A DNA stretch of 64,000 nt from Planctomycetaceae bacterium (GTDB taxonomy: Bacteria; Planctomycetota; Planctomycetia; Planctomycetales; Planctomycetaceae), in NCBI GenBank assembly GCA_046349695.1, contig JAXMBV010000036.1:5713-69712 (forward strand). The letters are read 5' to 3'. Shown here in pieces: positions 2,521 through 63,597 of this stretch (position 1 is the first letter of the stretch; the number at the start of each line of letters is the position of its first letter). Made by a program: the position numbers and the translations under genes. The notes under the pieces were generated by a model. That model had not been told where the DNA came from, did no database searches, and worked only from the letters and a program-made list of their open reading frames with translations.

Positions 2521-2526
2521 GCAGTC

Positions 2527-15704: not shown

Positions 15705-15706
15705 GG

Positions 15707-17167: not shown

Positions 17168-17884
17168 TTAACCATCTGTTTTCGCTGCGTTCGCAGTGGA
17201 TTTACTTTTTCTGTCAGCTTTGCCGGAGTCAGGCTGGCTTTTCATCCACCAAAACAGACTGATGATCAATACCAGCATGCAGATTGTAAAGGTGGCGAGA
17301 CCGGCTTTGTAGAGGCCTTCGCCTGGAACCGGTTCTGCGTCGCCTTCCAGTGGTTCATCGGGGGCTTTCGCAATGGCGTCGTTCTGAATTTGCCGTTCGA
17401 GCTGGCGTGCCCATGCACTTCGAGCCTCCGTCGCGTCATTCCTGCCACCCGGAAGGTCACGACCCAGTTCACGAAATCCGTCCTGGATGTCCCCTATGAA
17501 ACCAAGTGCAAGCGCCAGGTAAAAATGCTCGGCAATGATCGGACTGGATGACGCGACAACGGATTCTCCCTGCTCATAAAATTTCCATGCACGATTCTTC
17601 TGCTCAAAGTAGTCATACTCGAGTGCATAGTTTTCCCATGCTGGCATATGGTTTGTCAGCACTTCATCAGCCCAGTAGATGAGCATGGCTTTCAGGTTTC
17701 GCCACTCAGCTGACGGAAGCCCGGTATTTTCGACGGTGATTCGGTGTTCAATCAGCTGGAGGTCCTGCTTTAGTCGGCGCTGCAGATCCATCAGCTGTGA
17801 ATCGTCGGGTGACTTGTTGTGATTGATCAGCGTCAGCACTTTGAGGAAAAACGGTTCCGTCAGTGTGGCAACAGAGTTTGCCAT
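17168..17884 (-). CDS. tssL: T6SS membrane protein TssL (DotU family), no peptidoglycan-binding extension
   Basis: ATG start. DotU-like blocks: 'AMLIYWADEVLTN', 'YDYFEQKNRAWKFYE', 'AEHFYLALALGFIGD'. There is a single C-terminal TM (GLATFTICMLVLIISLFWWM). Confidence 0.75.
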   Translation of the reverse strand: MANSVATLTEPFFLKVLTLINHNKSPDDSQLMDLQRRLKQDLQLIEHRITVENTGLPSAEWRNLKAMLIYWADEVLTNHMPAWENYALEYDYFEQKNRAWKFYEQGESVVASSSPIIAEHFYLALALGFIGDIQDGFRELGRDLPGGRNDATEARSAWARQLERQIQNDAIAKAPDEPLEGDAEPVPGEGLYKAGLATFTICMLVLIISLFWWMKSQPDSGKADRKSKSTANAAKTDG

Positions 17885-17914: not shown

Positions 17915-19330
17915 TTAGTTGGCTGTGGTTTTGATAGCGAACAGTGAGAACGCCATGCTTGCGGTCCCAGCGCCTTCGCGATCGTCGACGAATGCGACGT
18001 TGGGGGAATTCTGTTCCTTTTCCACATGCCGTTCATTGAACCGAATCCCGAGGTTCAGTGTGCGTTCAACATTGCCCCAGGCTTCGCTGCGTTCGATTCG
18101 GAAATAGTGCCAGTTCTGGCGAGGAAATACGCGAGGAGTGTCAGTCGCGGCAACAATGTTCAACCCCCGACGGCCCCTGCGGAAAATGTCGTCCACTTCA
18201 TCAGAGCTGCCGGCTTTCATATGGAGCTTTCGCTCTGAGAGCATCTCCGCGACTTTCGAACTGCTGAGCAACGATTCTACGCCGATGTAGAAGGCCCAGC
18301 TTGGTTCGAGCCATTCCTGCTGCAGTCGAACCGACATCTGAAGTCCCTGCCAGGCGAACGGGATGCGCACATAATCAGCGTCTGCCCCAATTTCGATATC
18401 AAGGAGTCGGCGAAGTTCCTGAAAACACAGCGCAATGTTGTCATGGTTATAGACAGGCAGTTCACTGAGCTTGCGGCTGCGCCGAAAGATGGCCAGTTCA
18501 CCGGCGGCCCGGCAAAGTTCCATGTAGACGAGGAATGGATGAATGCCGCGATGGAATGGAAGCGGAGCAATGCCGCCAAGCGCGGAATTGAGTGCATGCA
18601 GATGAAGAATACGCTCAAGGTCCTCGCGGTGCCCGCTGCCAAACGAGACTCCGCGATCGATCATCTGACGGGCGAGTTGATCGGCCGTTGCTGACAGCCG
18701 ATCATACACCGATCGCACAAAGTAGCTGACGTAAGGCCAAGCTTCCTGACAGAGTATCGGAGGAATGTAGTCCGGGTCTACCTGCGGAGGAGCCTCCGCC
18801 GTGGTGCCCAGTTTCAGTTGCATGATGGGCAGCGCATCGAATCCCCTGGCGGCTTCATCGCCGATCAGCAATCTTGGATTGGCGCGCCGGAGTTCTATCT
18901 CCTGAGGATTGCCAGCTCGATTTTCGTCTTCAACCTCTTCCCGATGGCGGAGGTACCGACGCGGCGGAGTTTCGGATTCAATGCCGACGTTGGAAATGCC
19001 GCGTCGAAGTTCTGAGATTCCAAGGTAAACCTTAACCCTGGTTTCGGCTGTTCGAAAGATGGTTTTCGGGATCGGTTCCGGAGAGATATGACAGTCTTCC
19101 GGGAACTTCAGCTGAGTTCCATCCTGCAGCCGAATATGACATCGGCTCAACGAGACACGCCAGTTAGCGAGAGCATCCGAATCCACTTCCAGCTGATAAA
19201 GCCCATAGAACGCCGGCGTCAGCCATGATGCCGACTGGTGCAGTGCCTGCTGGAACTGAACTTCAAGGCGCTGAAAATGATGCGGGCGAAGGAAGAGGCC
19301 TTCGTCCCAGAACATAGAATGAGATGCCAT
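17915..19330 (-). CDS. tssK: T6SS baseplate subunit TssK
   Basis: 'MFWDEGLFLRPHHFQ' is the hallmark TssK N-terminus. ATG 19330 is preceded by agaggg. The longest ORF begins at TTG 19378. Confidence 0.85.
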   Translation of the reverse strand: MASHSMFWDEGLFLRPHHFQRLEVQFQQALHQSASWLTPAFYGLYQLEVDSDALANWRVSLSRCHIRLQDGTQLKFPEDCHISPEPIPKTIFRTAETRVKVYLGISELRRGISNVGIESETPPRRYLRHREEVEDENRAGNPQEIELRRANPRLLIGDEAARGFDALPIMQLKLGTTAEAPPQVDPDYIPPILCQEAWPYVSYFVRSVYDRLSATADQLARQMIDRGVSFGSGHREDLERILHLHALNSALGGIAPLPFHRGIHPFLVYMELCRAAGELAIFRRSRKLSELPVYNHDNIALCFQELRRLLDIEIGADADYVRIPFAWQGLQMSVRLQQEWLEPSWAFYIGVESLLSSSKVAEMLSERKLHMKAGSSDEVDDIFRRGRRGLNIVAATDTPRVFPRQNWHYFRIERSEAWGNVERTLNLGIRFNERHVEKEQNSPNVAFVDDREGAGTASMAFSLFAIKTTAN

Positions 19331-19441
19331 CAGAACCCTCTGGATGTTCCGCATACTGCGGAAGAACAAAGTCCACAAAACATCCCTGACCCTGGTCCGC
19401 CGTCACAGTCCCTGACTGGACTGAAAGGCAACGTGCGATGT

Positions 19442-22400
19442 TCAGGGATTGATGATTTCCGTTGGAATTGACAATGGCTGTTTGAGCACGAGAGCACCGT
19501 TTTGCCGAGTTGTCCTCGACGTCAGAGCGATCTCCCGCTCAGCGAGTTTATCGTCCGTCCAGTCACCCTCAAACTCCCACACGACAGATCCACTTTCGAA
19601 TCGCCGACAAACAGAATTCACTCGGTCCGGATAAAATTCCCGGTTTGTCGCATCCCGCTTGCCAATTTCAATTCGGACATCCGGAAGCTCTTTGGCGCTT
19701 TCGGGGCTGCTATCCGGTACATCCAGGCGGATCTGAAGTTTGTCCGGCAGTTTTCGATACCAGAGATCTGCGTTCGGCAGTTCTCCGGATGCAGGATGAT
19801 GTAGGAGCTTGTCGGGACCGTTGTGTTCCACGATCTCGGACCATTTGAAGACATGGTCGGGCCTGGTGCGGGTCATGCGACACACGGCATTGACTCGAAC
19901 ATTGGACCGTGGCCAGTCCTGGAGGCGAATTCTCCACGCGGGTGTTCCGATCAGCATTCCGTTGGAATCCTGAAGCAATCGTTCTTCGGACCGGTGAAAC
20001 TGCTGTCCCGGCGCAGAATCCGCTTCAAACCAGAATTCGACTTCCTCCGGCGTTTTGACTGGCAGGGAACTGTCATCGCCAGTGAGCATCAAATCCACTT
20101 CCAGCGAACTGTCAACGCCGTTTCGTTTTGCTGTGGAGATGGCGGAAAGTCTGGATGGAGTCAGTCGGTCTTCACCACTGCTCCCACGAAATTCTGCTGA
20201 GGCAACAGCTGGAGGGCGCATGAACAGGAACTCATTGTTGCGCCAGTCGACCTGCATTTTCTGAGTATCACCTGCTTTGAATTCCAGAAGAATGTTGTCC
20301 TTTGTTTTGACGTCCTGATACAGCAGCTGGTACGAGTTCCCAGCGGGGATTTGATCATCCATATACTGAAAGCGATTCCTTTCCTTCTCCGCCGTGATCT
20401 GGATGGGTTCCAACGGCGCGTTCTCCAGACGAAACACTGGCGGCTTCCGAAATTCATCAAGAGCCCGAATAATCCCATCATTGTCTTTGGCATCTTTGAC
20501 TGTGCACCACTGTTTGAGCCCATCGCGTGCGAAGAGCTTTGTGATGGACTCTTTTTCTTCGTTGGCATTGATGTCAAACATGATGACCAGGACGTTGATC
20601 CTGCCGCCTGAGCCTTTCAGCAACTGGATCAGTTCATCCATGTTGTCCAGATCGGTGGCTGCACCATCAGTAATTGCCACCACGACACCAGGCTGGTACT
20701 GCAGGTCCTGTGTGATGGCTCTGCACAGCGAATAAAGCAGAGGCGTTGCTCCGAACGGCTGGGACTTCTCAAGTCGCTTCAAAACGTCATCAAAAGCCTT
20801 CTGTCCGTCGTCATTCAGACGCGTGAGCGGAACAAGTTGCTGGGAATCTTTCTGAGGATCGTCGGGTGGTTCAATAGACTGGTCCGGGAACTTGAAGCCC
20901 TGAAAGTGCTTAGCAAAATCCGGATTAGGGCTGCTTAGTCCCAGTCGGTGTCCAAACACTCTGAGACTACCGGGGCAAAATGGATCCTGCAGTGAAATCA
21001 CCTTGCGCATCGCTTCCAGCGCTTCTGCAGCGCGGGTGTTGACGGCATTCCCACGTACAGTTTTCATGCTGCCGGACCAGTCGAATACAAAAGCGATTGG
21101 CCGGGTGTCGGTTGTTTCCAGATACACGGCCCCATTTTCAGGAGGGATTCTGCGAACAACTTCCCAGGAGCGTCCTTCGCGCGGATCAACTTGTATCGCG
21201 CCAAGCTGTTGATGTCGCCCGCGGAAGTATAGAGAGACGCCATAGTCCACTGCCTGTGACAATTCGGCTTCCGTGGCTGATTGAGTGACTTTGAAGTTAA
21301 AGTTGGGCACTGGAATGGACTCCTGCCCAATACTGATGAGAGCAGAAAATTCATCCAGCGGTGTGCCATTCGCCATCAAATGTAAACCGGAAGGAACCGG
21401 ATCCGCAGTTGTCGGCGTGACTAAGAATGTCGCCTTTCCCTGAAACAACTTTGGTTCCGGAAACTCAATGACGCCCCGTCCGTACCATGTTTTGCCATCG
21501 GTCAGTTTGACTACGGAAGGGGCGAGAGGAGACTTGAGTGATGCTGACCATTTGCCAGTGCTGCGGGCCTTCAGTCTCTCCTGGCAGGCGCGATCGTCTC
21601 CAGCCCATTTCTCTGCCGTCTTGAAGTACCAGTCGGGGCTTTTTCCGGAGATCCAGCCGCCTGTCAACAGTCGCTTCACATGTAGGTCACGATAGTCATG
21701 CAGGTATCGATCCAGCAGCGATTTCGTGAGAAGGTTTTTTCGCTTGTCCCACAGAGTCATGCAGTCATAGACTGGCAGGACTCGGCAGAGAAATTCAGCA
21801 TTGCCAAGCTGTTGAGTTTTTGTGGAATCGTCAGGTGGGGTCATGAGTTCTCGCCGGACTGATTTCCAGACATCGCTGATCTCATAACCACGCTCGAAGA
21901 GTTCATCCAGGGTTTTCACAGGGACCTTGTCCTGTGGCAAAAAGGTCAGGATCTGGGCCTTCCAGCGAACGGCACTTTGGTTTCCAGAGGCCAGGAAGCA
22001 TGGCTGGAACGGCGACTCTTCCGCGAGCGGAGTCTTATTCTGAGCCATCGCGATGTCAGTATTTGCCACCATCCTCAGGATGGCGGTACGGTCTTCGGCA
22101 GAGACGAACGTCAGTTTCAGCAAGCCACGAGTGGCCTGATAATGTGCTCGCAGATTTGACCCTGGAATGGCCTTCTTTCCGTCCTCTCCGATGGCGTTGC
22201 TGACCAGCGATTTTCCGAGAGCCTGAGTCTGTCGATACGATTCATCAAGACGTGTTCGCCATTTTGCCAGTGATCCATGATGTTCCTGCAGGGGCGACAG
22301 AGCGTCGGGCACTGGCGTTTGAAAGAGCAACTGTTGCAGTACGCGGGAACAAAGCAAAATTCGGAGCGTTTCGTTCGCAAGTTCTTTATTCAGAACTGCC

Positions 22401-24256
22401 GGCTCGTCTTTTGCAGAAATTTGCTGCCTCGGAGGCATTCGGTCCCACAGCGAACCTGCGTCCCGCCGCTGAAAGTTGTCGCTGAGGAGCAAGGCTGTGT
22501 CAGAGTCTTTCTCGACGTGGGCGGCCGTGCTGCACCATTCCAGCAGACCAGGGATGAGTGGCTGAACATCCGCCAGAAGGCTTTCACTCAACCGGCGTTC
22601 CCGTGCCGTTTCGGTGATCACGTTCAGAATGGTTTCGATGGACTTTGGATCTCCGGAATCCACATTGGGTGCCGCAAAAAACGAATCTTCCACATCGAGG
22701 ATTTCTGTGTCGGCTTTTGACATCAGCGATTCAAGCATGTGAACACCACCGAATGTTTGTGCTGCTGTCCGTTCAGCCCTGGCTCGCTGGTCCGCCAGAA
22801 ATTTCTTTCGTGTTTCATTGTCCGTCGTCCGTGCATCAGCTTCTGTCCGGATGATCTGTTCCCACGAAGGCAATGGTGTCGGCTCAGTATCTCCGGATGC
22901 GTCTTCCGACGAGGCCGTCCAGGAATTGCTGATTCTCGAAAACGCGGGCGTGGACTTGAACCAGATTTTTGGCAATTGTCCGTCAGTGGACAGGTCGGAT
23001 CGCGATTGTACGTCGGTCCCCGGCTGAGTCTTCAGTTCAGCGTCGGCAGCAGTGAGGTAGACTGTTTCGGCGATCCGACACAATGAGTTTGCCGTTTCAA
23101 AATCGCCGGACAGAAATGACTCCTCGGCCGCCTGAAGATAATCGACAGCGATGCGCAGAGGAATCGGAGCGAAGCGGCTGCCACAGCGATCATTAATCTG
23201 CTGGCAGTGTTTCCATGTGGCTTCAATTCGACGCAATGCCGGATCGTCGATCGCAGACAGCAGCTTCTGTTCCGGGGGTGTTCCGGGACTTTTGACGACG
23301 ACAAAGTTTGTGTTCGTGCTGTCCCTGGTAACATGCTGGAGCTCCGGGCCCCGAAAAGCTGTTACCCATTCCTGTGTTCCTGCCTGCAGGTATCCAAAGA
23401 ACTCATTCACGTCAATCAGTTGGTCGGAGTTGGCATCTGCGTCGGTTGAAAGTGCAGCGTTCACAAAGTGTGCGAAAGCTGTCTGTCCCTTGAAGTGGAT
23501 CGAACCTGGCCAGCTGATTTCCTGATCGCCGGAGGCTGCAATCACCGCCAGCCCGGAGATTTCTTCCGGCCACTTAAGGCATTCTGTGATCCCCGTGTTG
23601 CCTGTTGATCCGTACCGCAGAGAGTCTCTCAGTGGAGGAGTATCAAGCAAAAGAAGAACACTGACGTTTTCGCGTTCTTCAACGAGCTTGCTGATGGCTT
23701 CCTTAACATTCTCAAGTGAGACTGTGTCATCGGCTTCCAGATCCGGGCTTCCCCGTCCGCTCAGAACCTGGATTTTGTTTGCAGAATTGCTGACCAGACC
23801 GGTCTGAAGATAGAGAATCAGAATCTCGTGATCACTGTCGCGGTAACGAGTTTCTTCTCGAACCGCGTTGAGTCCTTCGGACCATCGGTCAAACAATGAT
23901 GATCTCGCTGCAGGAACTTTCAGATTTCTGAGCACTGCGTTGTCTGCCGTCAGATCCTGGACGGCGGGTTCCTGGTTGACAAGACCTGGCCACTGGAGCT
24001 GAACGGCGTCGAGAGCCCCGGCCGGATTTCGCACGGTAACGAGATTGAAACTTGTGGCGAATCGGTCTGGTATGACAAAGATCCAGATTGCCAGCCCAAC
24101 AAGTATGAACAGCAACAGCGAGGCAACGGCAATCAATCCCCATCGGAGACTGCCGTCGGCATTTGCTGCCCGCCGGCGCGATTGTTTCCATGCAGGGCTT
24201 TCAGAGGAGTCCGACCGGCCGCGACTTTCTCTTCCGCCTCTCCATCCTCGTGCCAT
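19442..24256 (-). CDS. giant single-pass membrane protein with VWA (MIDAS) domain, T6SS-associated
   Basis: 1604 aa with an ATG start. It has an Arg-rich N-tail, one TM (WGLIAVASLLLFILVGLAIWIFVI), an alpha/beta domain, a long helical region, and a VWA domain. The VWA domain has MIDAS 'FVFDWSGSM' (nt 21065..21091), 'GATPL' and 'ITDGAAT'. The C-terminus is beta-rich. Confidence 0.85.
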   Translation of the reverse strand: MARGWRGGRESRGRSDSSESPAWKQSRRRAANADGSLRWGLIAVASLLLFILVGLAIWIFVIPDRFATSFNLVTVRNPAGALDAVQLQWPGLVNQEPAVQDLTADNAVLRNLKVPAARSSLFDRWSEGLNAVREETRYRDSDHEILILYLQTGLVSNSANKIQVLSGRGSPDLEADDTVSLENVKEAISKLVEERENVSVLLLLDTPPLRDSLRYGSTGNTGITECLKWPEEISGLAVIAASGDQEISWPGSIHFKGQTAFAHFVNAALSTDADANSDQLIDVNEFFGYLQAGTQEWVTAFRGPELQHVTRDSTNTNFVVVKSPGTPPEQKLLSAIDDPALRRIEATWKHCQQINDRCGSRFAPIPLRIAVDYLQAAEESFLSGDFETANSLCRIAETVYLTAADAELKTQPGTDVQSRSDLSTDGQLPKIWFKSTPAFSRISNSWTASSEDASGDTEPTPLPSWEQIIRTEADARTTDNETRKKFLADQRARAERTAAQTFGGVHMLESLMSKADTEILDVEDSFFAAPNVDSGDPKSIETILNVITETARERRLSESLLADVQPLIPGLLEWCSTAAHVEKDSDTALLLSDNFQRRDAGSLWDRMPPRQQISAKDEPAVLNKELANETLRILLCSRVLQQLLFQTPVPDALSPLQEHHGSLAKWRTRLDESYRQTQALGKSLVSNAIGEDGKKAIPGSNLRAHYQATRGLLKLTFVSAEDRTAILRMVANTDIAMAQNKTPLAEESPFQPCFLASGNQSAVRWKAQILTFLPQDKVPVKTLDELFERGYEISDVWKSVRRELMTPPDDSTKTQQLGNAEFLCRVLPVYDCMTLWDKRKNLLTKSLLDRYLHDYRDLHVKRLLTGGWISGKSPDWYFKTAEKWAGDDRACQERLKARSTGKWSASLKSPLAPSVVKLTDGKTWYGRGVIEFPEPKLFQGKATFLVTPTTADPVPSGLHLMANGTPLDEFSALISIGQESIPVPNFNFKVTQSATEAELSQAVDYGVSLYFRGRHQQLGAIQVDPREGRSWEVVRRIPPENGAVYLETTDTRPIAFVFDWSGSMKTVRGNAVNTRAAEALEAMRKVISLQDPFCPGSLRVFGHRLGLSSPNPDFAKHFQGFKFPDQSIEPPDDPQKDSQQLVPLTRLNDDGQKAFDDVLKRLEKSQPFGATPLLYSLCRAITQDLQYQPGVVVAITDGAATDLDNMDELIQLLKGSGGRINVLVIMFDINANEEKESITKLFARDGLKQWCTVKDAKDNDGIIRALDEFRKPPVFRLENAPLEPIQITAEKERNRFQYMDDQIPAGNSYQLLYQDVKTKDNILLEFKAGDTQKMQVDWRNNEFLFMRPPAVASAEFRGSSGEDRLTPSRLSAISTAKRNGVDSSLEVDLMLTGDDSSLPVKTPEEVEFWFEADSAPGQQFHRSEERLLQDSNGMLIGTPAWRIRLQDWPRSNVRVNAVCRMTRTRPDHVFKWSEIVEHNGPDKLLHHPASGELPNADLWYRKLPDKLQIRLDVPDSSPESAKELPDVRIEIGKRDATNREFYPDRVNSVCRRFESGSVVWEFEGDWTDDKLAEREIALTSRTTRQNGALVLKQPLSIPTEIINP

Positions 24257-24312
24257 GACCTACTCCAGGATATCGGATTGCTTCTGCACTTTATTGATGT
24301 CTGCGGCAGAGG

Positions 24313-25956
24313 CTACTTGTTCTTCATTGTGTAAAGAATGAAAATCGTCGCGACCGTCGCAGCGCTGGCGGCAACAAACAGAAGAATGGCAAATGAGCGG
24401 GAACGCTGCACACTTCGAACGTAGTGCGGTGCCCACGCCACTTCATTTTGATCCTGCCGAAGTTTGTCCACGACTCCCTCAATGAAGCCCTGTTCTGTAG
24501 CGAGTCTTCCGGTCGCGGCAAAATAAACTCCGTGGAGCCGAAGGGCAGGCTTGATTCCGGCATACAGGCATTCCCGCAGAAGAACCATGATGCCATCTCG
24601 GCGCTGGCCAAGTTCACAGACCATCTGGAACATCTTAGGGTTTTCGCGGTGATCAAGATCGTTTGCAAACCCCGCGTAAACCCAGCGACGAAACCACTGG
24701 AGTCCAGAGTCTGTAATCCACTGGGCCATCGATTCTGTCATCTCCACGCCTTTTGGAAAGCTGGAGCCAGCACGTGTTTTTCTAAGACCCGGGCAAATTC
24801 GCTCCGTTCTCAACAGGAACTCCCGCATTCCTGACAAGTCATCCAGTTCTGTAAACATGGCAATCACAGGAAACTGCAGGTGCAGAACACTGTGAACAGC
24901 GACGAGGTCGTCACGGACTGCCGGAGCCAGCTTTCTGGCATAATCCGGGTCCGAGGCCCACGAGAGCGGGATTGCCTGGAGCATCCCATTGAGGCCACAG
25001 AAAGGCTTTCGAACCAAGTTAATCAACTGACACAGGAATCGTACTCGCCGTATACCAACGAGGCTTTCCAGATCGGTGACGGGCTGAACCTTTTTCTTTC
25101 CGTAACCCTTGAGGCCACTAAAATTGGTGGCGGAAAATGTCTGCATCGCTTTCTTCATACCACCGGGAACCATCGTTCCCATGAAGGAACGCGGAGCCGG
25201 GGCTGATCCGCCCTGGGTCATCGCCAGAACAGGCGCCGCAGAAGGCGCGGGCATCCCTGTCACAGTTCCGGTGAGTGGCCTGGGTTTCTCCGGCATTTGC
25301 CCGGCCTTCATCGTTCCCGTCAGTTTCTCCGAGGCTCCGCTTCGCGAGATTGAAGAATCGCTGTCCGCAACGACCTTTCCCTGCTGGCAAGTTGTGACTC
25401 CCACTCCGGACATACAAAGAAAGATGCCATTTTCGCGAGCGTAAGCCCGAAGTACCGTCGAATTGCGGTCCAGCGGAGGAGCAATAACTTTCCATTCGCT
25501 TCCTGCTCCGTTGTCCGACGAAGTTTCGAATGCTGATCTTTCCTGTTGTGGCGTCATCCCGTTGACAAGGAACAACGGGAGTTCATCGATATAGAGCCGC
25601 TCTCTCTCCAGCGCTGTCAGGATTTCTTTCCAGTCTGCTTCGATATCCGGAAAATCCGATTCCTCTTCGATTCCCAGCAGCCCAATCAGAAAAAGTACAG
25701 TGCGAACAATGCCGTAAAGCAGCAAAAACAAAACACCGCACCAAATGTCACTGATCCACCGAATCTCAAACTTAGGTGGTGTAAAGTGAAGAGAATTGAC
25801 AATGGAATCGCTGAAGATCGCCAGCAGCAGTGTGATCACTGCGATGAAAATGTAGTGAACGAACAGGTAGGATTTGGGGGAGCCAATCGCTGACTTCGGC
25901 ACGACACCAAACAGCCATCGGCACCAGTCGAGCATTCGGTAGAAAAAACTGCCCAT
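24313..25956 (-). CDS. tssM: truncated TssM/IcmF-like protein (N-terminal TM pair + cytoplasmic domain + one TM; no periplasmic domain)
   Basis: Two N-terminal TM helices (about res 31-49 and 70-95). 'ELPLFLVNGMTPQQER' sits at the position of the TssM 'LPWYLxIGxxGSGKT' block, so Walker A is lost. 'RRVRFLCQLINLVRKPFCGLNGMLQAIPLSW' and 'FPVIAMFTELDDLSGMREFL' match the TssM N-domain blocks (LNGvllaiS; PVYvvfTKxDLlxGFxEFF). The final TM FAILLFVAASAATVATIFILY is followed by only a few residues. The call is from motif memory. Confidence 0.6.
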   Translation of the reverse strand: MGSFFYRMLDWCRWLFGVVPKSAIGSPKSYLFVHYIFIAVITLLLAIFSDSIVNSLHFTPPKFEIRWISDIWCGVLFLLLYGIVRTVLFLIGLLGIEEESDFPDIEADWKEILTALERERLYIDELPLFLVNGMTPQQERSAFETSSDNGAGSEWKVIAPPLDRNSTVLRAYARENGIFLCMSGVGVTTCQQGKVVADSDSSISRSGASEKLTGTMKAGQMPEKPRPLTGTVTGMPAPSAAPVLAMTQGGSAPAPRSFMGTMVPGGMKKAMQTFSATNFSGLKGYGKKKVQPVTDLESLVGIRRVRFLCQLINLVRKPFCGLNGMLQAIPLSWASDPDYARKLAPAVRDDLVAVHSVLHLQFPVIAMFTELDDLSGMREFLLRTERICPGLRKTRAGSSFPKGVEMTESMAQWITDSGLQWFRRWVYAGFANDLDHRENPKMFQMVCELGQRRDGIMVLLRECLYAGIKPALRLHGVYFAATGRLATEQGFIEGVVDKLRQDQNEVAWAPHYVRSVQRSRSFAILLFVAASAATVATIFILYTMKNK

Positions 25957-26025
25957 AGATCTGGATCACTCTCAGTTCAGGTTGACGACATTCCGGGGCG
26001 ATCGGACTGTATCAGGATTGTCTTT

Positions 26026-29000
26026 TCACGGCAGCTGGTAAACTTTTGGCTTATCCATCATCGTGCCTTTGTCGTCGAGTTTTATTCGCTCGGAACCGCT
26101 GGTCTGGCCTTTGTCTTCCCATTTGACATCATGACTGCCGGCAGAAAGTGGTCCAAACTGCAGGACTTCCCCCGCTTTTGCTGTCTTTGTTTCACGGTCG
26201 ACGCTGGCTTTGAATTCTCCAACGACGCCACTTCCCAGGATGAAAGTGACGTAGAACGGTAACGGTTCCTTTTTCTCCATCGTCGCGGGCGTCGCCGATT
26301 TGACGAAAAACGCCGCATTCCTTTTCTTCTGCAGACCGGCATAGTTTGTCACGCGAACGATAAGTTCCTGTTTGGCCGGACCAGGACCCTCAGGAACCAC
26401 GAATGCCTCCGGGGGAATCGTGAACTTTTCAGATGCCATTCGATCCGATGGCGCTCGCCCGACAAATGCAGTCAGCGGCTTCAAATCTTCCAGTTTGCAT
26501 CCGACTTCGATCATTGCAATTCCTGAATCAGAATCACGAAGCCCCGTGATCTCTCCAATGAGAGGCATGTCTGGAGGAACAGTCCTTATCTCTGTGTTCC
26601 CGGTCGCGGAACCGGAAGCGATTTTGATCTCTCCAACCTCCGGCTCTGTGGCGTCAACCGCCAGTTCGATCGAATCTGTGGTGGACTTCGCAAGGTGTTT
26701 CAGTTCAGCCGTGATTTGGATTCGGCCGGGTTTCAGGGACAATGGTTCTGTTGCATCCCATGGCTCAGTCGTGGTCGTAACATTCCAGCGGCCTTCTTCT
26801 CCGCCAGTCACCTGGATTGCGTGTTCCTTGAAGCGGCTGATGCGACGGGATGCTCCAAGGCGTGTCTGGCTGTTAGTGGAAGGAGATTGCTGTTGCACGA
26901 AGAAATCAATCAGTGCGCTCTGGTTGACTGGTCGCCCCAGTATGTGAACTCGGGGGCGCAGAGGTTTCCCATTCGCCTGTGAATCGAAAATCGTCAGGCC
27001 AGGCAGAGAGTTCTTTGGCGGAACTCCGAAATCACTTAGTTCGGCCACGATAACCGGCGCGTCGTCTTCCCACAGTGGCTTGCAATTCCCGTTTGGCGTA
27101 AGTTTCCAGCCCCAGACAAATGGGTCACCACAGGCACTGACAAAGAACGTCGCTTCGCCCTGCAGCGGCTGAAGGAATTCAAACTCCATCGGGGAGTCCG
27201 CGTTTTGAATATCCTGTCGCTGATCTTCTGACAGCGGAGAAGCCATGTTCGCAAGCAACTGCGGGGAAAAATGCACCTTCACTGGCATGAGGCGGGGAGA
27301 GATCGCAGGAAGGCGCGACTGGCGACGAAACTGCAGACTCAGTTTTCGTTCCGTCGAATTGTAGTTCGCAAGCGGAATCTCAAGGAAGGACTCTGCCGAA
27401 CTGCATCGAGGCACCACTGTAATGATCTTCTCGTCCTGGCTAACCTCCTCACCGGGTGTTTCTGCAGCTTTCACAGAGACAACCCAGCCGTGTGAGAAGT
27501 CAATTCCGCCAGGTGCCGGAGCCTCGGCAGCTGGTGCTGCTGCTCCGGCGACCGGAGGAGGTGTCAGGGGGATTTTGATTTGCCCATCAGCGGGCACATC
27601 AAACGGCACAGCGTTCGGCCAGACCGACTGAAGCTGCCCGTCTTCAGTGATTCTTTTCAACTGCACCATGACTTTTGGGACGGCACCCTTCGTACGGATT
27701 AGGTGAACGCTGAAGTCTGTGGGCGGTTCTTTCCCAAGGTGCGGCGGCAAAGGAAGTTCCCATTGATCGCCGTTTGCGACCAGAATCTCCTGCCCCGATT
27801 TCCTTACAGCAAGCTCCCAGTCAGACACCGGGCTTGGCATGACCTTGACTGATTGTCGAGCCACAACGATGTTGTTTGGGTTGATGAAAAGCAATTGTGT
27901 GTCTATGGCCGTCAGCAGCGGGTCTGAATGCCTGCGGATCAGGTCGACGGATGGGGTTTCCGGATTGCCTGATTCGATGACCTCCAGCCCGGATTCAGCC
28001 GGAGCAAGAAGTTCGATTCGCGGTTTAGCCTGTTTTGAATCCACAGAGAACCCAATCGTGCCTTTGCCATCTTCTGACAAATACAACTGATTCCGGTTCA
28101 CATTGAACGGAGCTGGTGGTGAACGCAGCAGTCCATCGACCCTGGGCCTGGATGCCACTTCCCAGTTGAACGTTTCCCGGTGGGAGAAAAAGCGATTCAG
28201 AAGTGAGATCGCATCCTGAGTCGTGATGAGGCTGCTTTCGGGAGTTGTCGCATTCTGATACTCGTGGAGCGACTGCCAGCCTTCCTTTAGCGCCAACGCC
28301 AGTTCGACCCTCGCTGTTCTCTGTGAAGCGGTTGACTCTTTAGCCTCATCGAATGTGGTCTGCTTCAGCCGATTCCAGTTTTCCCAAATGCGTTCCACAA
28401 CCGGCGACCCGGCGGGAGCAGCGAGAGTCAGTTGCTGCTCCAGGTATCGAGCGGCCCAGTAGCCAGTCCACAGTCCGTTGCCTGACGCTGGCAGATCAGA
28501 TGTTGAAATGGATGTCGCATCCTCAACCGGCGTCAGCCGATTTTCCCCCGCCAGTGAAGGCGGAATCAATTGCCGTTGGCTGATCAACCATCGATCCTTA
28601 GCCCCGTCACCCTGCAGCAATTGTTCCTGAAGTACCTTCACGCTTCGAGTTGCCACAGCCTGATTCGGGTAGTCCCTGGACGTGAGTTCGAAAAGGGCCG
28701 ACTGCAGTTCGTCCGGAGTGGAAACATTCTTGTCCCGCTCAAGGCCTCGAAGTTCATCCAGCTTGAAGGATCGTTCCTGAGACAGAGCAAAGTACTGGAT
28801 CAGATAAGGCAATTCCTGCTGTTGAGCAAGCTGGCTGTCGCTGTCCGACTGAGTCTGCGAAATGCGCGCCTGTAGATCTTTCCAGTCTTCGCGTAGGTCT
28901 GCCACAATCGGCTTTGCCTTTTTCCACTGACCTTCGCCAAGGATCAGCCAGCTCTCTGCGGCAGCAAGTTGAATAAACAGCCGATCAATGGCTGCCAGTT

Positions 29001-30837
29001 GTTCTTTGCCCGCGACCGTTTTTTCCCATGTGGATTTCGAAAGCGGCCTGCCTGCAGTTTCGGGAAAAAGCCCGAGGCTTGCCGCCAGAATTTCATCACG
29101 GATAGAAAGGAGCTCCAGCAGCGTCGGCAGACCTTCGGCATCACCGGCCCACTGCTGATTGGCCATGACGGCATTAATGGTTGCGAGTGTGAGCGGAAGC
29201 GTCTGACTCCCGTGAAGAGAACTACGGACTCGCTGGAAAAAGTCCGCCCGATTCTCCGGTTGCAAATCCCGCAACTGCTGCAACACATACGTTGTCAGCA
29301 TCTCCGGGGGATCGACGCCAACTGGCTTTTGAGACGGTTTTTCTGTTTCTGGCGACGAGGCCTTCAGAAAGTCAGCGCATTGCTTTCGAATTTCCGGTGT
29401 TAGAGTTTCCTTTGCCGCACCGACTCTAAGAAACTGACGCAGCGAGGCGCCACTTTCGCCAATGATTGTGGACTGATACGCAGCCGGATCGTCTGCAAGT
29501 CCGTTGACAAGGCTCTCCGCCTGATCAATCGCACGCTTGCAGTCTGTTTCCTGCTGGTGTCTGAGGAGCTGTTCCGCAAGAAAGACAAGGGCTTCACATC
29601 GCAGCCGCTTCAGGGCAGTGCCAGGTGCCGCAACCTGCCTTGAGCTCCGAAGGTCAGCAATTCGTTTCCAGAGTGCAGCGATTCTCTCGGAAGGCAGAGG
29701 CTCTGACGTTTGCTCTCCCTGCGGCTTCTCCGCCTTATCTGAATTCGCAACAGTCTTTTCATCGGACGGTGCGGACTGACTAACTTTGGGTGGCCAGTTC
29801 GGACGACTGACTCGGTCAAGCAGACCTGTCCGGGGCTCGGGGCCGGCGGTCAGTACAGTAACCGCCTGATCCACGCCATGGATCTTTTGGACCGTCTCCC
29901 TGACCCTTGACTTCAGTTCATCCAGGAAATCAGGCAATGGCGGCGAGTCCATTTCTGCGAGCAGCTGGCAGGCCACATCGCCGAAAACGGTCCCTGAATA
30001 CATGGACGCGATCTTCGACTCGGCTTGCGGCGCTTCAGTTCCTTCCGGCTTTTCAGGATCAGATGTCTTGTCACTCTGCGCGACGAGTTCCCAGCTTCTT
30101 TCTCCGGCAGCGCACGCGGTGACCACGACGAGGTCTTCCCGCTCGAGTTCTTCGACGAGTTGCTTCAGCAAGGCATGGCAGTCGGATCCAAGGCTTGTTC
30201 CTGTGATAGACGGAATCTGGTTCTCCATCTCCAGAAGTATCAGCGTGAGAGTTTCCGGACGCTGCGCATCTGCATTGACAGCGAATTCCTGGAAAAATGC
30301 CTTCGCAGTTCTCCATTCCGTCTTACCGCCGACGTCTTCTGCAAACTCCAGTTCAGTGATGGCACCGACCGAATGGGCTCGGGCCTTCACGGACACATAG
30401 GCCACTACCTGATCCTGCGGTGAGCGGGCTGGGAGCTCAAGATCCTTGTTTCTGCGACACTTCATCGGGACCTGGACGCGTCGCGGCGATGCGGCATGAA
30501 AAGCGTCAAACAATGCATCGAATCTGGACTGATTTGTGCGGAACGACAGATCCATCGAAACTGGAGGGATGGTCGCAGCGATTGACATTGGGTCTGAAGA
30601 ACTGAATGTCACAAACTGGATTTGGACTGCTTCACCGGGCCAAAGCAATCGTACCAGCACTGCAAGCATTGCCACGAGCAGCGCGCTGACTCCAATGATC
30701 CGAGCTTTTCGTGACTTTGCCCTATTGGCTGTTTTTGCTGGTCTCCAGGTTTTTTCACGCCCTGATGACACCGTAACGCTCCGAATCTGTCGGGTTGAAT
30801 TTGCTTCGCCTCGCCACTCCATCGCACAACTGTGCAC
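26026..30837 (-). CDS. giant single-pass membrane protein, T6SS-associated (architecture paralogous to 19442..24256)
   Basis: 1603 aa, starting at GTG 30837 or ATG 30822. It has a basic N-tail, one TM (IIGVSALLVAMLAVLVRLLW), an alpha/beta domain, a long helical region, and a Pro/Ala linker (PPPVAGAAAPAAEAPAPGG). The C-terminal part is beta-rich and Ig-like. Confidence 0.85.
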   Translation of the reverse strand: MHSCAMEWRGEANSTRQIRSVTVSSGREKTWRPAKTANRAKSRKARIIGVSALLVAMLAVLVRLLWPGEAVQIQFVTFSSSDPMSIAATIPPVSMDLSFRTNQSRFDALFDAFHAASPRRVQVPMKCRRNKDLELPARSPQDQVVAYVSVKARAHSVGAITELEFAEDVGGKTEWRTAKAFFQEFAVNADAQRPETLTLILLEMENQIPSITGTSLGSDCHALLKQLVEELEREDLVVVTACAAGERSWELVAQSDKTSDPEKPEGTEAPQAESKIASMYSGTVFGDVACQLLAEMDSPPLPDFLDELKSRVRETVQKIHGVDQAVTVLTAGPEPRTGLLDRVSRPNWPPKVSQSAPSDEKTVANSDKAEKPQGEQTSEPLPSERIAALWKRIADLRSSRQVAAPGTALKRLRCEALVFLAEQLLRHQQETDCKRAIDQAESLVNGLADDPAAYQSTIIGESGASLRQFLRVGAAKETLTPEIRKQCADFLKASSPETEKPSQKPVGVDPPEMLTTYVLQQLRDLQPENRADFFQRVRSSLHGSQTLPLTLATINAVMANQQWAGDAEGLPTLLELLSIRDEILAASLGLFPETAGRPLSKSTWEKTVAGKEQLAAIDRLFIQLAAAESWLILGEGQWKKAKPIVADLREDWKDLQARISQTQSDSDSQLAQQQELPYLIQYFALSQERSFKLDELRGLERDKNVSTPDELQSALFELTSRDYPNQAVATRSVKVLQEQLLQGDGAKDRWLISQRQLIPPSLAGENRLTPVEDATSISTSDLPASGNGLWTGYWAARYLEQQLTLAAPAGSPVVERIWENWNRLKQTTFDEAKESTASQRTARVELALALKEGWQSLHEYQNATTPESSLITTQDAISLLNRFFSHRETFNWEVASRPRVDGLLRSPPAPFNVNRNQLYLSEDGKGTIGFSVDSKQAKPRIELLAPAESGLEVIESGNPETPSVDLIRRHSDPLLTAIDTQLLFINPNNIVVARQSVKVMPSPVSDWELAVRKSGQEILVANGDQWELPLPPHLGKEPPTDFSVHLIRTKGAVPKVMVQLKRITEDGQLQSVWPNAVPFDVPADGQIKIPLTPPPVAGAAAPAAEAPAPGGIDFSHGWVVSVKAAETPGEEVSQDEKIITVVPRCSSAESFLEIPLANYNSTERKLSLQFRRQSRLPAISPRLMPVKVHFSPQLLANMASPLSEDQRQDIQNADSPMEFEFLQPLQGEATFFVSACGDPFVWGWKLTPNGNCKPLWEDDAPVIVAELSDFGVPPKNSLPGLTIFDSQANGKPLRPRVHILGRPVNQSALIDFFVQQQSPSTNSQTRLGASRRISRFKEHAIQVTGGEEGRWNVTTTTEPWDATEPLSLKPGRIQITAELKHLAKSTTDSIELAVDATEPEVGEIKIASGSATGNTEIRTVPPDMPLIGEITGLRDSDSGIAMIEVGCKLEDLKPLTAFVGRAPSDRMASEKFTIPPEAFVVPEGPGPAKQELIVRVTNYAGLQKKRNAAFFVKSATPATMEKKEPLPFYVTFILGSGVVGEFKASVDRETKTAKAGEVLQFGPLSAGSHDVKWEDKGQTSGSERIKLDDKGTMMDKPKVYQLP

Positions 30838-31050: not shown

Positions 31051-31683
31051 CTATTCTGCCGCCTTTTTCGAATCAAACATTGAGACGTTGTGGTTGATCG
31101 CCGGAACCTCGTCTTCAGCAACTTCCGGAACCTCCACTGAGACAGTGATGATGGAACCGGCAGTAATTCCATTCATCGGAATTCGACGGAAGTACTTCTG
31201 ACCATTGATTACAACATCGACTTTGCCTTCGTACTTGTAAGACTTCGCCTGATCCAGAATCTGGACAACGTACTCACGCTTGTTTCCAAGAGACGTCATT
31301 CTCTGGTCGCCCAGCCACACGCCGGCACTTTCCGGAACCTTGAAGATGATCTTTGCCTGAGACAGTTCATAAAGCTTCTTTGACTGGCTCTCGGGTGTCA
31401 GTGATTCAATATCAATCCCTTCTGCGTAGGTGCAGTCCCAGCAGCAGGCATTGATACCACAAGTGGCACAACTGGACAGTCCTCCGCATGTGCCGCACAG
31501 GCCTGTCAGGCTGCAGCCCGAACCGCATGAGTTGCATGGATTTGAACCACAGGAATCACAGGCTGCTATAGGAGCAGCGCAGGACGGGGCAGGGGCACAG
31601 GAGCAGTCGTCAAACGGAGCCGCACTAATCGAAGCGGCCAATGACGATGCCAACAACATCGCTAGGGCGGAAAGTAGACGCAT
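31051..31683 (-). CDS. secreted Cys-rich protein with Planctomycete TIGR03000-type C-terminal domain
   Basis: Signal peptide MRLLSALAMLLASSLAASISA. A ~65-aa stretch carries about 20 Cys (CSCAPAPSCAAPIAACDSCGSNPCNSCGSGCS...CCWDC). Then 'AKIIFKVPESAGVWLGDQRMTSLGNKREYVV...YKYEGKVDVVINGQKYFRRIPMNGITAGSIITVSVEV' fits the TIGR03000 pattern as I recall it. Confidence 0.75.
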   Translation of the reverse strand: MRLLSALAMLLASSLAASISAAPFDDCSCAPAPSCAAPIAACDSCGSNPCNSCGSGCSLTGLCGTCGGLSSCATCGINACCWDCTYAEGIDIESLTPESQSKKLYELSQAKIIFKVPESAGVWLGDQRMTSLGNKREYVVQILDQAKSYKYEGKVDVVINGQKYFRRIPMNGITAGSIITVSVEVPEVAEDEVPAINHNVSMFDSKKAAE

Positions 31684-58745: not shown

Positions 58746-59729
58746 TCAGGACCAGAGTCGTTTTCCGGCTGCGATTGACTGTGCCAGTTCCACAAAGGCG
58801 GCACGACGTGCCGGCGCCTTTTCCGGCGACTTGATGACCGATGCGAGGATCACCGAACCGCTGATTGCTTTACCCGGGAGTTCCGGTCCAGGTGGCACCG
58901 CTGGGGCATTCGGGGGAGCCATGCTGCCGTGTGACCAGAAGACCGCAACTCCCGCCCATGCCGCGGCTGTGTTCATTTCTGTGGACTGTGCTAACTCCAT
59001 GATCTTTCGACGCAACGGTTCAGACGGCGCCTTGACCCAGTCAGTTACCTGAGCGATGAGATCGGGATCCTTTGAATCCCTGGCTGCATCGGCCGCTTCA
59101 ATGCAACCAATAGCCCACCAGATCCCAAGTCGCTTCGGGAGAGCCCTCGAAAGAAACTCAAGTGCGTCGTTGTCGGCCCCTTCTTTCAGGCATCTCTGGG
59201 CAAAGGCTTCACAGGTTTCAGTTTCGTGGGGTCTGAGAGTTATGACTTTGCCGAGCTGAAACTGCGCGATGATCTCGGCCGCTCCAGGAACGACAAAACC
59301 CTCCGATCGCAGGCAATCGGCTGGAATTTCTTCTGCTTTGTCCGGCTTCGCACTGTGCTGGTGCTTCGTTTCAGAAGTAACTTCTTTGCGAACAACAGTG
59401 CTGGCAACCTGTGGTGGCGCTGCAGCAGTGCCGCCATCAAGCTCGACAGACAACGTGGTATTGCCACACAGTAGCTTGTCGCCCGGCTTTATGGTGCCTC
59501 TGGTGACCGGTTCCGCGTTGAGAAACGATCCATTAGTGCTCTGCAGGTCTTCGAACTGTAGTTCGGTTCCATGCACACTCAGCCGAATATGGCGTCCCGA
59601 CATCAAGTCATCATCAGGAAACGTCAGGTCAGCAGTCGGAGTTCTGCCGACCACGATCTCCTGACCAGCAGACAAGACGGCAATGTCGCGAAACTCTCGC
59701 CCTGTCTGGACTCTCAGGAACCATCTCAT
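58746..59729 (-). CDS. FHA-domain protein (T6SS Fha/TagH-like) with unassigned C-terminal domain
   Basis: ATG 59729 has a GGAG ~10 nt upstream. The FHA core is 'VVGRTPTADLTFPDDDLMSGRHIRLSVHGTELQFEDLQSTNGSFLNAEPV...GDKLLCGNTTLSVE'. The gene lies directly downstream of vgrG on the same strand. Confidence 0.8.
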   Translation of the reverse strand: MRWFLRVQTGREFRDIAVLSAGQEIVVGRTPTADLTFPDDDLMSGRHIRLSVHGTELQFEDLQSTNGSFLNAEPVTRGTIKPGDKLLCGNTTLSVELDGGTAAAPPQVASTVVRKEVTSETKHQHSAKPDKAEEIPADCLRSEGFVVPGAAEIIAQFQLGKVITLRPHETETCEAFAQRCLKEGADNDALEFLSRALPKRLGIWWAIGCIEAADAARDSKDPDLIAQVTDWVKAPSEPLRRKIMELAQSTEMNTAAAWAGVAVFWSHGSMAPPNAPAVPPGPELPGKAISGSVILASVIKSPEKAPARRAAFVELAQSIAAGKRLWS

Positions 59730-59910
59730 CTTGAAAACTCCAAGCTTGTCTGCTGGATGCGGAAGCGACCGGATGCCGTTCAGCAGCAATCGGAGCGATT
59801 TTTCGTGATCTTGCTGAACGCGGCTGCCAATGATAACCGGAACGCCCGCAAAAATGCCACGCAGTCAGCGACAGACATTGCCGCTCAGAGTTCGCACCTA
59901 ATTCTGAGCA

Positions 59911-61986: not shown

Positions 61987-62026
61987 CGCACAGCTCCGTG
62001 GCTGACAGTGGAAAGTTCATCTGGAA

Positions 62027-62088
62027 CATGAAAACGCTGCACTCGCCGGAAAGGACGGTTGAATGCCCTTTCCTGTGACTGCAGCGTT
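62027..62088 (-). terminator. hairpin (possible partial terminator/attenuator) between hcp copy 1 and vgrG
   Basis: On the minus strand: AACGCTGCAGTCACAGGAAAGG-...-CCTTTCCGGCGAGTGCAGCGTT followed by TTTTC. It is related to the terminators after hcp copies 2 and 3 but has a shorter U tract. Confidence 0.45.
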
Positions 62089-62111
62089 GGCTTTTTGTGG
62101 ATGCAGGACGC

Positions 62112-62597
62112 TTAGCTTCGACCTGAAGCTGGTTCGTATTTTGCCGGTACCTGACCCTTTTTGTCGCCTGTCTTCGGGTCAACGACGATGTAGGTCCATT
62201 CGGCCTTTGTGTACCCCATTGTGACTTCTTCTGACGGAAGCGGACTGCCCGATGCATTTGCATGCATGCTGAAGCTGCTGATGATCACGTTGCTCAGTTT
62301 GTAAGTCAGGTAGGGTTCCTGCTTGTTCTTGACTGTTGTGCAGAAGTGGATTTCAACCTCTTTGAAAAACGTCCCGTTCGCACACGCTTCCTGCAGCTTC
62401 GTGGAGGACTTATCCAGCTGGCGGACAACAACCACATCGCCCAGGGTTGTGTCACCTTTAGTTCGCTGCTGGTCCTTGGCACCCTCTGGCACCGATCGGA
62501 AGATTGGTGCTCCCATCGATTCAATCAGAATCCAGTCCTTGTGATCCTGGTCGGTTGCTTCACCCTTGATGTCGCCGAGTTTCATGAATGCTGGCAT
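62112..62597 (-). CDS. hcp: T6SS tube protein Hcp (TssD), copy 1
   Basis: 'MPAFMKLGDIKGEATDQDHKDWILIES' is a typical Hcp1 N-terminus. It is 161 aa, with AAGGAG 8 nt upstream of the ATG. Confidence 0.92.
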   Translation of the reverse strand: MPAFMKLGDIKGEATDQDHKDWILIESMGAPIFRSVPEGAKDQQRTKGDTTLGDVVVVRQLDKSSTKLQEACANGTFFKEVEIHFCTTVKNKQEPYLTYKLSNVIISSFSMHANASGSPLPSEEVTMGYTKAEWTYIVVDPKTGDKKGQVPAKYEPASGRS

Positions 62598-62762
62598 TAG
62601 TAACTCCTTTGAGTGACGAGTTTTTCTATGAATCTTCGTGGCTCAAGCGGTTGTGAGCCCGTATCTGAGATCATTGTCTTGCGGAACGAAGTGACGGTTG
62701 CCAGTTTTTTGCCGTTTTTGGGCAGAAATCTCAAAGCGAGCCGATGCCACGTGCTTTTACGC

Positions 62763-62817: not shown

Positions 62818-62853
62818 TGGCGATGTTCTGGCGGTGCCCTCGTGTCAGCAGGT

Positions 62854-63560: not shown

Positions 63561-63597
63561 TTCAATTTCCAGACAGGGCTGGCAGCGTCAGCAGATC

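Follow-up and report, generated by a model that had tools for sequence, protein, structure and literature searches.

No part of a type VI secretion system (T6SS) is less conserved or less well understood than its membrane complex. In its canonical T6SS-i form, as in enteroaggregative Escherichia coli, it is built from TssJ, TssL and TssM (PMC6517824), and two departures from this arrangement have been studied experimentally. In the T6SS-iii of Bacteroidota, a phylum-specific envelope set, TssNQOPR, replaces the canonical complex; TssL and TssM are lacking, TssK is docked through TssN, the predicted domains comprise a vWA domain, TssR_D2, and Ig-like PKD domains in TssP, and the genes lie within or close to T6SS loci, which are sometimes split (Bongiovanni et al. 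2024, PMC10781749). The Acinetobacter membrane complex, in turn, has no TssJ and contains TsmK and other lineage-specific partners (PMC10564176). In Planctomycetota, Rhodopirellula baltica carries T6SS genes (PMC2660368, PMC5394234), and statements on the T6SS of this species are all that the full-text literature searched here offered for the phylum, with no description of a truncated TssM or of the proteins A and B introduced here. We analyzed a stretch of 64,000 nucleotides, hereafter the window, from a Planctomycetaceae bacterium (GCA_046349695.1, contig JAXMBV010000036.1, positions 5,713 to 69,712), in which two giant genes, A and B, enclose a truncated tssM next to tssK and tssL, and which looks like a T6SS locus with a lineage-specific membrane complex defined by an uncharacterized protein family.

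All five genes lie on the minus strand (Table 1). The truncated tssM, whose product we call TssM', is separated by 56 bp from A and by 69 bp from B, and tssK and then tssL follow downstream of A. An earlier note on this DNA, made from the letters alone, had given these coordinates, the strand, the gaps and the identities of tssM, tssK and tssL, all of which proved correct on re-checking the open reading frames (ORFs) and searching Pfam. The window thus encodes the TssL/DotU protein that the canonical TssJLM complex requires (PF09850, 4.2e-12), in a form that has no peptidoglycan-binding domain.

TssM' is where the departure from the canonical system begins. In Pfam it matches only IcmF-related_N (8.9e-10), and TIGR03348, the model of full-length TssM, stays far below its cut-off of 388 with 27.5 bits, over model positions 201-365 of 1168. 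Its transmembrane (TM) helices fall at residues 31-49, 75-93 and 523-541, and the protein ends six residues after the third, giving the order TM1, TM2, cytoplasmic IcmF-related_N domain, TM3 and end, with no periplasmic domain. A Walker A motif is absent from TssM', and four orthologues have the same layout. The window TssM' is therefore not a full-length TssM with periplasmic helical and C-terminal (IcmF_C) domains, nor are five orthologues aligned with it, and the reading of the gene as truncated holds. Compared with T6SS-i, TssL, TssK and the N-terminal half of TssM are present and homologous, and the remaining machine of the relatives (TssA/B/C/E/F/G, Hcp, PAAR, VgrG, ClpV) is canonical, whereas the periplasmic domain of TssM (~600-700 aa) and the Walker A motif are gone, two 1600-aa bitopic proteins without similarity to TssM or TssJ are present, and no TssJ was seen in the clusters. 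In the clade of the window, the cytoplasmic domain of TssM' also carries, at residues ~200-295, a low-complexity insert of about 90 aa rich in Ser, Thr, Gly, Pro and Met, which is absent from TssM' of the type found at locus L006 (459 aa) and is a candidate phosphorylation region or disordered linker.

A and B are predicted to project almost entirely out of the cytoplasm. Each has a single strong TM helix near its N-terminus (A 44-62, hydropathy peak 2.98; B 47-65, peak 2.64) and no other TM-like segment, and the tails before these helices are rich in lysine and arginine (K+R 10-12 against D+E 3-4, in A 10 against 4). By the positive-inside rule, both are predicted to be bitopic, with a cytoplasmic N-terminus and about 1540 residues outside the cytoplasm, in keeping with the roughly 1500 periplasmic residues per protein given by the earlier note; the basic tails thus speak against a topology with the bulk in the cytoplasm. 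The tails carry motifs of their own. Twelve A-type sequences share the consensus xWRGGR...P(S/A)WKQSR, in which W5, R6 and W23 are invariant, B-type orthologues begin with MSxGR(S/T)WRPEK, and tails of a class of ~900 aa contain RDWHWRD or RWRG. From the B-type pattern, the true start of B probably lies some 21 codons downstream of that of the longest ORF, near residue 22, which would give a protein of ~1582 aa.

Pairwise BLASTP finds no similarity between A and B (E 0.12), and it is the profiles that relate them. An alignment of 3 A sequences matched one of 6 B sequences over A216-402 and B210-460 (probability 96%, E 1.7e-9), and hhalign with 12 and 13 sequences, respectively, gave a match of 341 columns (probability 99.6%, E 8e-25, A 45-414) that runs from the TM helix through the alpha/beta domain into the first helices. 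At locus L006, the A-like and B-like proteins are similar even by direct BLASTP (27% identity over 314 aa, E 1.4e-16), and a hidden Markov model (HMM) of the shared N-terminal region matches every giant gene beside TssM' in related loci. Past residue ~415, no similarity is detectable by profile, the C-terminal ~1200 residues being different. On these alignments, A and B are distantly related paralogues with a homologous N-terminal module. The earlier note had described them as twins that share a basic tail, one TM helix and an alpha/beta domain; this is right for their size, topology and N-terminal domain, but not for the chain as a whole, in which the homology covers only some 370 residues, ending at about A414.

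The alpha/beta domain behind the TM helix appears to be a caspase fold. AlphaFold2 modeling of A 63-420 from a 9-sequence alignment of A and B sequences gave a mean pLDDT (predicted local distance difference test) of 61.8, with 65-88 in the core, and a pTM (predicted TM-score) of 0.61. The top 50 Foldseek matches of this model in the PDB were all clan-CD peptidases (E 4.8e-6 to 1.5e-3), namely legumain, the MALT1 paracaspase, Geobacter GSU0716, metacaspase-9 and caspase-9, with TM-scores of 0.36-0.43 on caspase-only chains (target length). Sequence gives independent support, as Pfam Peptidase_C14 is weakly matched by 2 of 30 family members (best 1e-4), and the A-like protein of locus L025 has a weak precomputed match to the same model. 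Fold and strand order, with EILILYLQ, VSVLLLLD and LAVIA as the strands in A, are predicted to be those of clan CD (caspases, metacaspases, MALT1, legumain; Peptidase_C14), and the motifs YLSAHG, LLLLD and LCACxPGQxS resemble metacaspase motifs. The structural matches thus support, with moderate confidence, a fold of the caspase/legumain/metacaspase type, and with it a tentative suggestion of the earlier note, which had seen such a fold without its His/Cys dyad.

The dyad is indeed where the family parts from clan CD. Across 163 aligned family domains, the His strand has the consensus YLSAH(A/G), with the His itself kept in 61, and the Cys strand reads LLLLD, then V/L/I, then M/T/A/S/P; at none of the three positions after LLLLD is Cys among the six commonest residues. 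In A, the sites of His and Cys are taken by G153 and P207, respectively, and B likewise has neither His nor Cys there, so that, judged by these alignments, neither protein possesses the dyad. Since the predicted fold is that of clan CD but the dyad is missing, we consider the domain a pseudo-caspase and not a peptidase. It further differs from clan CD in that the Cys site of the family is Met, Thr, Ala, Ser or Pro and in its predicted position outside the cytoplasm, right after a signal-anchor TM helix.

Beyond the shared module the two chains diverge. In A, the AlphaFold2 model has helices at residues 338-410 (model residues 276-348), and farther along, the chain carries what its sequence indicates to be a divergent VWA domain with an intact metal ion-dependent adhesion site (MIDAS) motif. 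Among 12 A-type sequences, D1059, S1061, T1171 and D1197 do not vary, and S1063 is at least 90% conserved. The Pfam matches of the window protein are below cut-off (VWA 0.006, VWA_2 0.014); VWA_2 reaches 6e-4 in the orthologue of locus L001 and 28 bits, against a cut-off of 27, in orthologue P0120, and PDB searches with shallow and deep profiles returned weak VWA-domain matches only. The C-terminal region, the N-terminal domain and the VWA domain are the best-conserved parts of A-type proteins (P0003 4e-48).

For B, an AlphaFold2 model of residues 404-1603 from 13 sequences (mean pLDDT 71.9) predicts an all-helical stretch of ~490 aa at residues 404-889 (model 1-486, pLDDT mostly 70-90), followed by about seven beta-sandwich domains at residues 917-1587 (model 514-1184). 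The helical-then-beta layout that the earlier note had given for both proteins is thus upheld for B, the protein that this modeling covered. In Foldseek, B matched arrays of macroglobulin (MG) or Ig type, namely complement C3/C5, alpha-2-macroglobulins (E. coli ECAM, 4rtd, among them), cadherins and S-layer proteins, at very low TM-scores of 0.07-0.18. The beta-sandwich string of the C-terminal 690 aa accordingly resembles the MG arrays of alpha-2-macroglobulin and C3 in domain type only, and no thioester, bait region or Pfam A2M match was detected in B. ECAM is an inner-membrane-anchored periplasmic protein of similar size. We also considered whether the periplasmic domain of TssM had moved into A or B, or whether either contains a domain resembling TssJ, and rejected both ideas, for which neither sequence profiles nor the top 50 Foldseek matches of B give evidence.

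We then compared the locus with its relatives by scanning genome and metagenome collections with TssM' alignments and mapping the hits by tblastn, which found loci in metagenome-assembled genomes of Planctomyces sp., Planctomycetota and 'Ca. Kuenenia' and in metagenomes. The window was re-found as L009, a contig of the same species, and L001 as L003, leaving 13 distinct loci in the close TssM' clade: the window, L001, L002, L004, L005 and L010-L017. At all 13, an A/B-family gene adjoins TssM' wherever its flank is visible, the order being (s210)-B-TssM'-A, where s210 is a small secreted protein. The block is adjoined by tssK-tssL in the window and L001, by TssF-TssG-ClpV upstream in L014 (TssF-TssG-ClpV-B-M'-A) and by Hcp-VgrG downstream in L015 (B-M'-A-Hcp-VgrG), with ClpV and TssG near it in L010.

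Look-ups that started from the A/B family point the same way, 8 of 10 informative ones lying in or beside T6SS genes, and 2 of these are complete clusters. In L006, on a contig of 6.75 Mb, and in L021, the genes follow one another in the order TssA (present in L006 alone), an A-like protein with VWA, TssM' (458-459 aa), TssL, TssK, a B-like protein with CarboxypepD_reg, TssB, two TssC, TssE, TssF, TssG, Hcp, PAAR and VgrG. Among the called genes of the listed 25 kb of L006 and L021 there is no full-length TssM and no TssJ. T6SS-SciN, the TssJ model, likewise found no match among the scanned window ORFs or in the L006 and L021 clusters, the regions to which this search extended. Conservation of the A/B neighborhood with T6SS core genes, including tssK, tssL and tssM', is thus observed across distant lineages.

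The B partner is not always one gene. In L007, L023 and the P0044 locus, a member of ~1700 aa occurs with one of ~325-970 aa and a CarboxypepD_reg protein of ~600-636 aa, beside TssK/TssL/TssM', VgrG/PAAR or ClpV. The first of the two shorter genes encodes the N-terminal domain (plus helices in the longer ones), the second the CarboxypepD_reg beta domains, and in L024 proteins of these two types are fused (1636 aa), which identifies the arrangement as a split B. L025 has a B-like protein, TssM' and an A-like protein, and L020 and L022 hold orphan members among polysaccharide and murein-synthesis genes.

When the N-terminal domain profile was searched exhaustively with HMMER, 6697 clusters passed E<=1e-3, of which 2270 also passed E<=1e-10 and 241 E<=1e-30, counted as representative clusters at 50% identity; word-indexed homologue searches badly undercounted the family (3-5 matches). 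The best 150 members are bimodal in length (~1540-1800 aa and 780-1010 aa) because the B class is split in some lineages and fused in others. All members named at the source are called 'hypothetical protein', and all named taxa are Planctomycetota. Neither Pfam nor NCBIfam has a model for the family, and searches of Pfam, NCBIfam, PADLOC and PDB sequences cover neither A nor B, in line with the earlier note, which recognized no characterized T6SS accessory family in them. Pfam and NCBIfam gave no match of TssN/O/P/Q/R type for either protein, no direct sequence comparison with the Bacteroidota set having been made.

Rates of divergence offer a further comparison. Between L006 and L021, identity falls from TssC (81%) and TssK (74%) through TssL (54%) and TssM' (46%) to A (42%) and B (38%), and between the window and L001 from TssK (76%) and TssM' (62%) to A (30%) and B (26%). 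By these identities, A and B evolve like TssM'/TssL or slightly faster, and much faster than the sheath or TssK. The L006-L021 gradient fits a view put forward for the membrane complex (PMC10564176), by which evolution is fastest where the machine lies farthest out. Besides, the lengths of A and B covary over 8 loci that are phylogenetically non-independent (r 0.96, mean difference 10 aa).

Taken together, A and B are very probably dedicated to the T6SS, and with moderate confidence we read them as paralogous, bitopic parts of a Planctomycetota-type T6SS that form the periplasmic body of its membrane complex. TssM' ends after TM3 and the periplasmic tail of TssL has only 26 aa, so that no other gene of the cluster would provide a periplasmic body. 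This gap, the fixed place of A and B beside TssM', their paired sizes and their rates of change lead us to assign the periplasmic body to them, and the VWA domain with MIDAS in A and the beta-sandwich arrays in B, both modules of extracytoplasmic type, fit that assignment. Genomic context and predicted structure together somewhat favor a role for A and B as structural, envelope-spanning subunits of the complex, in which they would take the place of the TssM periplasmic domain and TssJ, associate with TssM' and TssL, pair with each other and reach the outer membrane. Several observations weigh against this reading. The model of the N-terminal domain is of moderate confidence (pLDDT 61.8) and scores low against caspase-fold chains (TM-scores 0.36-0.43); L004, L005 and L025 show no other T6SS gene beside the B-M'-A block; the two orphans, in L020 and L022, have no T6SS gene within 10 kb; and similarity to the TssM periplasmic domain or TssJ is found neither by sequence profile nor in the top 50 Foldseek matches for B.

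If A and B do form the periplasmic body, TssM', TssL and TssK would make up a hub, in the cytoplasm and inner membrane, on which the baseplate docks, and A and B would attach to this hub through their TM helices and their tails with W-R motifs. Caspase-fold proteins characteristically dimerise, and the pair of dead caspase folds would likely serve as a membrane-proximal scaffold for dimerization or oligomerization, with the helical regions as a stalk. At the distal end, A would present a VWA/MIDAS domain for metal-dependent binding, and B its beta-sandwich chain. A beta-sandwich domain measures roughly 4 nm, so seven would span ~25-30 nm when extended, and the B chain, in that state, would be long enough to reach the outer membrane. 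A more specific version, to which we give slightly less than an even chance, is a hybrid T6SS that keeps the hub of TssK, TssL and the N-terminal half of TssM, while its whole periplasmic conduit and outer-membrane contact are formed by a heteromeric pair of pseudo-caspase giants, with the Cys-rich s210 as a helper; in such a system A would provide a MIDAS adhesion site, B a beta-sandwich ruler of ~30 nm, and their covarying lengths would set the span of the unusually wide planctomycete periplasm.

A regulatory role is the first alternative to weigh. As T6SS-associated sensors, A and B might pass envelope or contact signals through their W-R tails to TssM', Ser/Thr kinases and FHA proteins. 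In the H1-T6SS of P. aeruginosa, the kinase PpkA of the threonine-phosphorylation pathway has a periplasmic VWA-like domain, and the putative ligand-binding MIDAS site of A would suit such a function, as would the Ser/Thr kinases that recur beside the module (a kinase with WD40 propellers in the window and L001, other kinases in L007, L018, L019 and L023), the FHA genes near VgrG in the window and the P0044 locus, and the 90-aa S/T/G/P-rich insert of TssM' as a possible phosphorylation target. However, the tails have only 25-50 aa and no output domain, A and B occur in every TssM' locus, including the kinase-free L004, L006 and L021, and a TssM' without a periplasmic part leaves a structural gap to be filled. 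We regard a sensory role as unlikely, and a structural one as the better account of A and B.

Less probable still, and doubtful in our view, is that TssM', A, B and the Cys-rich s210 form an independent envelope complex, for instance in architecture or adhesion, that is merely often near T6SS genes. The four-gene s210-B-M'-A block of L004, which is bounded by the housekeeping genes mutS and glycogen phosphorylase and has no T6SS gene in its vicinity, would be explained in this way, as would L005 and L025, the orphans of L020 and L022 and the large size of the wider N-domain family (2270 clusters at E<=1e-10). But no role is known for TssM' beyond the T6SS and the type IVB secretion system, it is the sole TssM in the otherwise complete clusters of L006 and L021, where it lies between TssL and A, and in the window, too, the T6SS genes are spread across ~45 kb. 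Genes with linked functions usually lie scattered in Planctomycetota, which also counts against a separate complex. That A and B are instead cargo or surface proteins (effectors or adhesins) exported or displayed via the T6SS is highly improbable, for although they are large and fast-evolving, have VWA and Ig-like arrays typical of adhesins and lie near VgrG in L023, L024 and the P0044 locus, they begin with a signal-anchor TM helix and a conserved cytoplasmic motif, contain no toxin, PAAR, Rhs or MIX-type domain (Pfam, NCBIfam, PADLOC) and keep a strict pairing of one A and one B round TssM', unlike variable effector cargo.

The remaining genes of the window place the block in the context of a larger system. 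A second T6SS group with Hcp, VgrG and FHA genes, likewise on the minus strand, is found upstream of B at a distance of ~28 kb, which indicates that the organism has tail genes, split from the membrane genes. A machine of only TssK, TssL and TssM outside the T6SS was considered and rejected, given the complete clusters of L006 and L021 and the Hcp and VgrG genes of the window. Directly upstream of B in six loci (window, L001, L004, L010, L011, L016) is s210, a protein with 15 Cys, very Cys-rich in its N-terminal half, and a match to the planctomycete-specific domain TIGR03000; it may be a further subunit. The next two genes, for a YHS-domain protein (60% identity) and the kinase with WD40 propellers (46%), are syntenic with the module in L001 and absent from L004 and L010-L016.

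Farther out, the 3092-aa ORF contains five tandem units of 798 bp (266 aa), whose compared 300-nt segments are 99-100% identical and whose region has a strongly positive GC skew (+0.17); such near-perfect repeats could reflect a recent expansion or an assembly artefact, and a 3014-aa ORF beside the B-like gene of L025 has no tblastn similarity to this ORF. On the other side of the block, the helicase and DUF790 genes, present in L009 and absent in L001, are probably unrelated neighbors. An extracytoplasmic function (ECF) sigma factor gene lies farther downstream, and ECF sigma genes recur in L002 and L007, where they adjoin A/B-family genes, and in L023, close to TssK.

Table 1. Features of the window, with positions counted from its first nucleotide
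Feature	Position	Strand	Details
HerA-like ATPase (DUF87/HerA_C) and ADP-ribosylglycohydrolase	2449-5197		
ECF sigma factor (PF07638) and adjoining Ser/Thr kinase	10103-13858	-	kinase 1015 aa, with TPR repeats
XPB-like helicase (ResIII/Helicase_C/XPB_DRD) and DUF790 protein	14487-17065	-	directly downstream of tssL
TssL (DotU)	17168..17884	-	PF09850 4.2e-12; C-terminal TM helix 194-212; 26-aa tail
TssK	17915..19378	-	PF05936 9.1e-71; likely start M17 at 19330
ORF A	19442..24256	-	1604 aa, ATG start
A C-terminal region (aa 1271-1604)	19445..20446	-	conserved; no Pfam match
A VWA domain, divergent (aa ~1031-1270)	20447..21166	-	putative MIDAS D1059-x-S1061-x-S1063, T1171, D1197
A middle region (aa 331-1030)	21167..23266	-	helices to ~aa 414 homologous to B
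A predicted pseudo-caspase domain (aa ~63-330)	23267..24070	-	AlphaFold2 and Foldseek
A TM helix (aa 44-62)	24071..24127	-	hydropathy
A cytoplasmic tail, predicted (aa 1-43)	24128..24256	-	motifs WRGGR, PAWKQSR
TssM' (truncated TssM)	24313..25956	-	547 aa; between A and B
ORF B	26026..30837	-	1603 aa as longest ORF, GTG start
B predicted beta-sandwich array (~7 domains, aa 917-1587)	26029..28089	-	AlphaFold2 and Foldseek
B linker and all-helical region	28171..29817	-	AlphaFold2 helices aa 404-889
B predicted pseudo-caspase domain (aa ~66-340)	29818..30642	-	hhalign to A; BLASTP of L006 paralogue
B TM helix (aa 47-65)	30643..30699	-	hydropathy
B cytoplasmic tail, predicted	30700..30837	-	motif KTWRPAK
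s210, secreted 210-aa Cys-rich protein	31051..31683	-	signal peptide, TIGR03000 1.2e-6
YHS-domain protein	31950-33239	-	possible lipobox VVGC
Ser/Thr kinase with WD40 propellers	33549-39413	-	1954 aa
3092-aa ORF	39622-48900	-	tandem repeats 41679-45668
Efflux-type genes	50467-58663		730-aa HlyD/M50-like, 374-aa HlyD, 605-aa without match, divergent 805-aa outer-membrane efflux protein (OEP)
Second T6SS group	58746..63969	-	tblastn with L006 T6SS proteins, Pfam
FHA+DUF6931 protein	58746-59789	-	Pfam
VgrG	59911-61986	-	Phage_GPD 2.6e-84
Hcp	62112-62597	-	T6SS_HCP (two complete Hcp: 9e-36, 1e-34)
Hcp	62854-63405	-	T6SS_HCP (two complete Hcp: 9e-36, 1e-34)
Third Hcp, partial, at window edge	~63610-63969	-	

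Among the described systems, the locus is conceptually closest to the membrane complexes of Bacteroidota and Acinetobacter. With Bacteroidota T6SS-iii it shares a phylum-specific envelope set that would replace the canonical complex, along with vWA and Ig-like modules, but here the hub of TssL, TssM' and TssK is retained and the exchange would concern the periplasmic part alone, and no pseudo-caspase domain has been reported in the Bacteroidota complex. With Acinetobacter it shares the apparent loss of TssJ and lineage-specific envelope proteins that would compensate for it, whereas TssM is full-length there, with an extra C-terminal feature, and its periplasmic part is absent here. In this sense, the planctomycete locus would represent a third solution beside the two experimentally studied departures from TssJLM. 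If its docking hub has indeed been kept while the periplasmic half was swapped for unrelated proteins, two functions of TssM would have been separated in nature. The family that would perform the second of them is now delineated, from a close set of 241 clusters at E<=1e-30 to thousands of more distant ones, and its N-terminal domain suggests that a dead enzyme fold, the pseudo-caspase, has been taken into a secretion machine as one of its structural modules. For Planctomycetota, A and B are thus concrete candidates for the proteins by which a T6SS may cross their atypical envelope.

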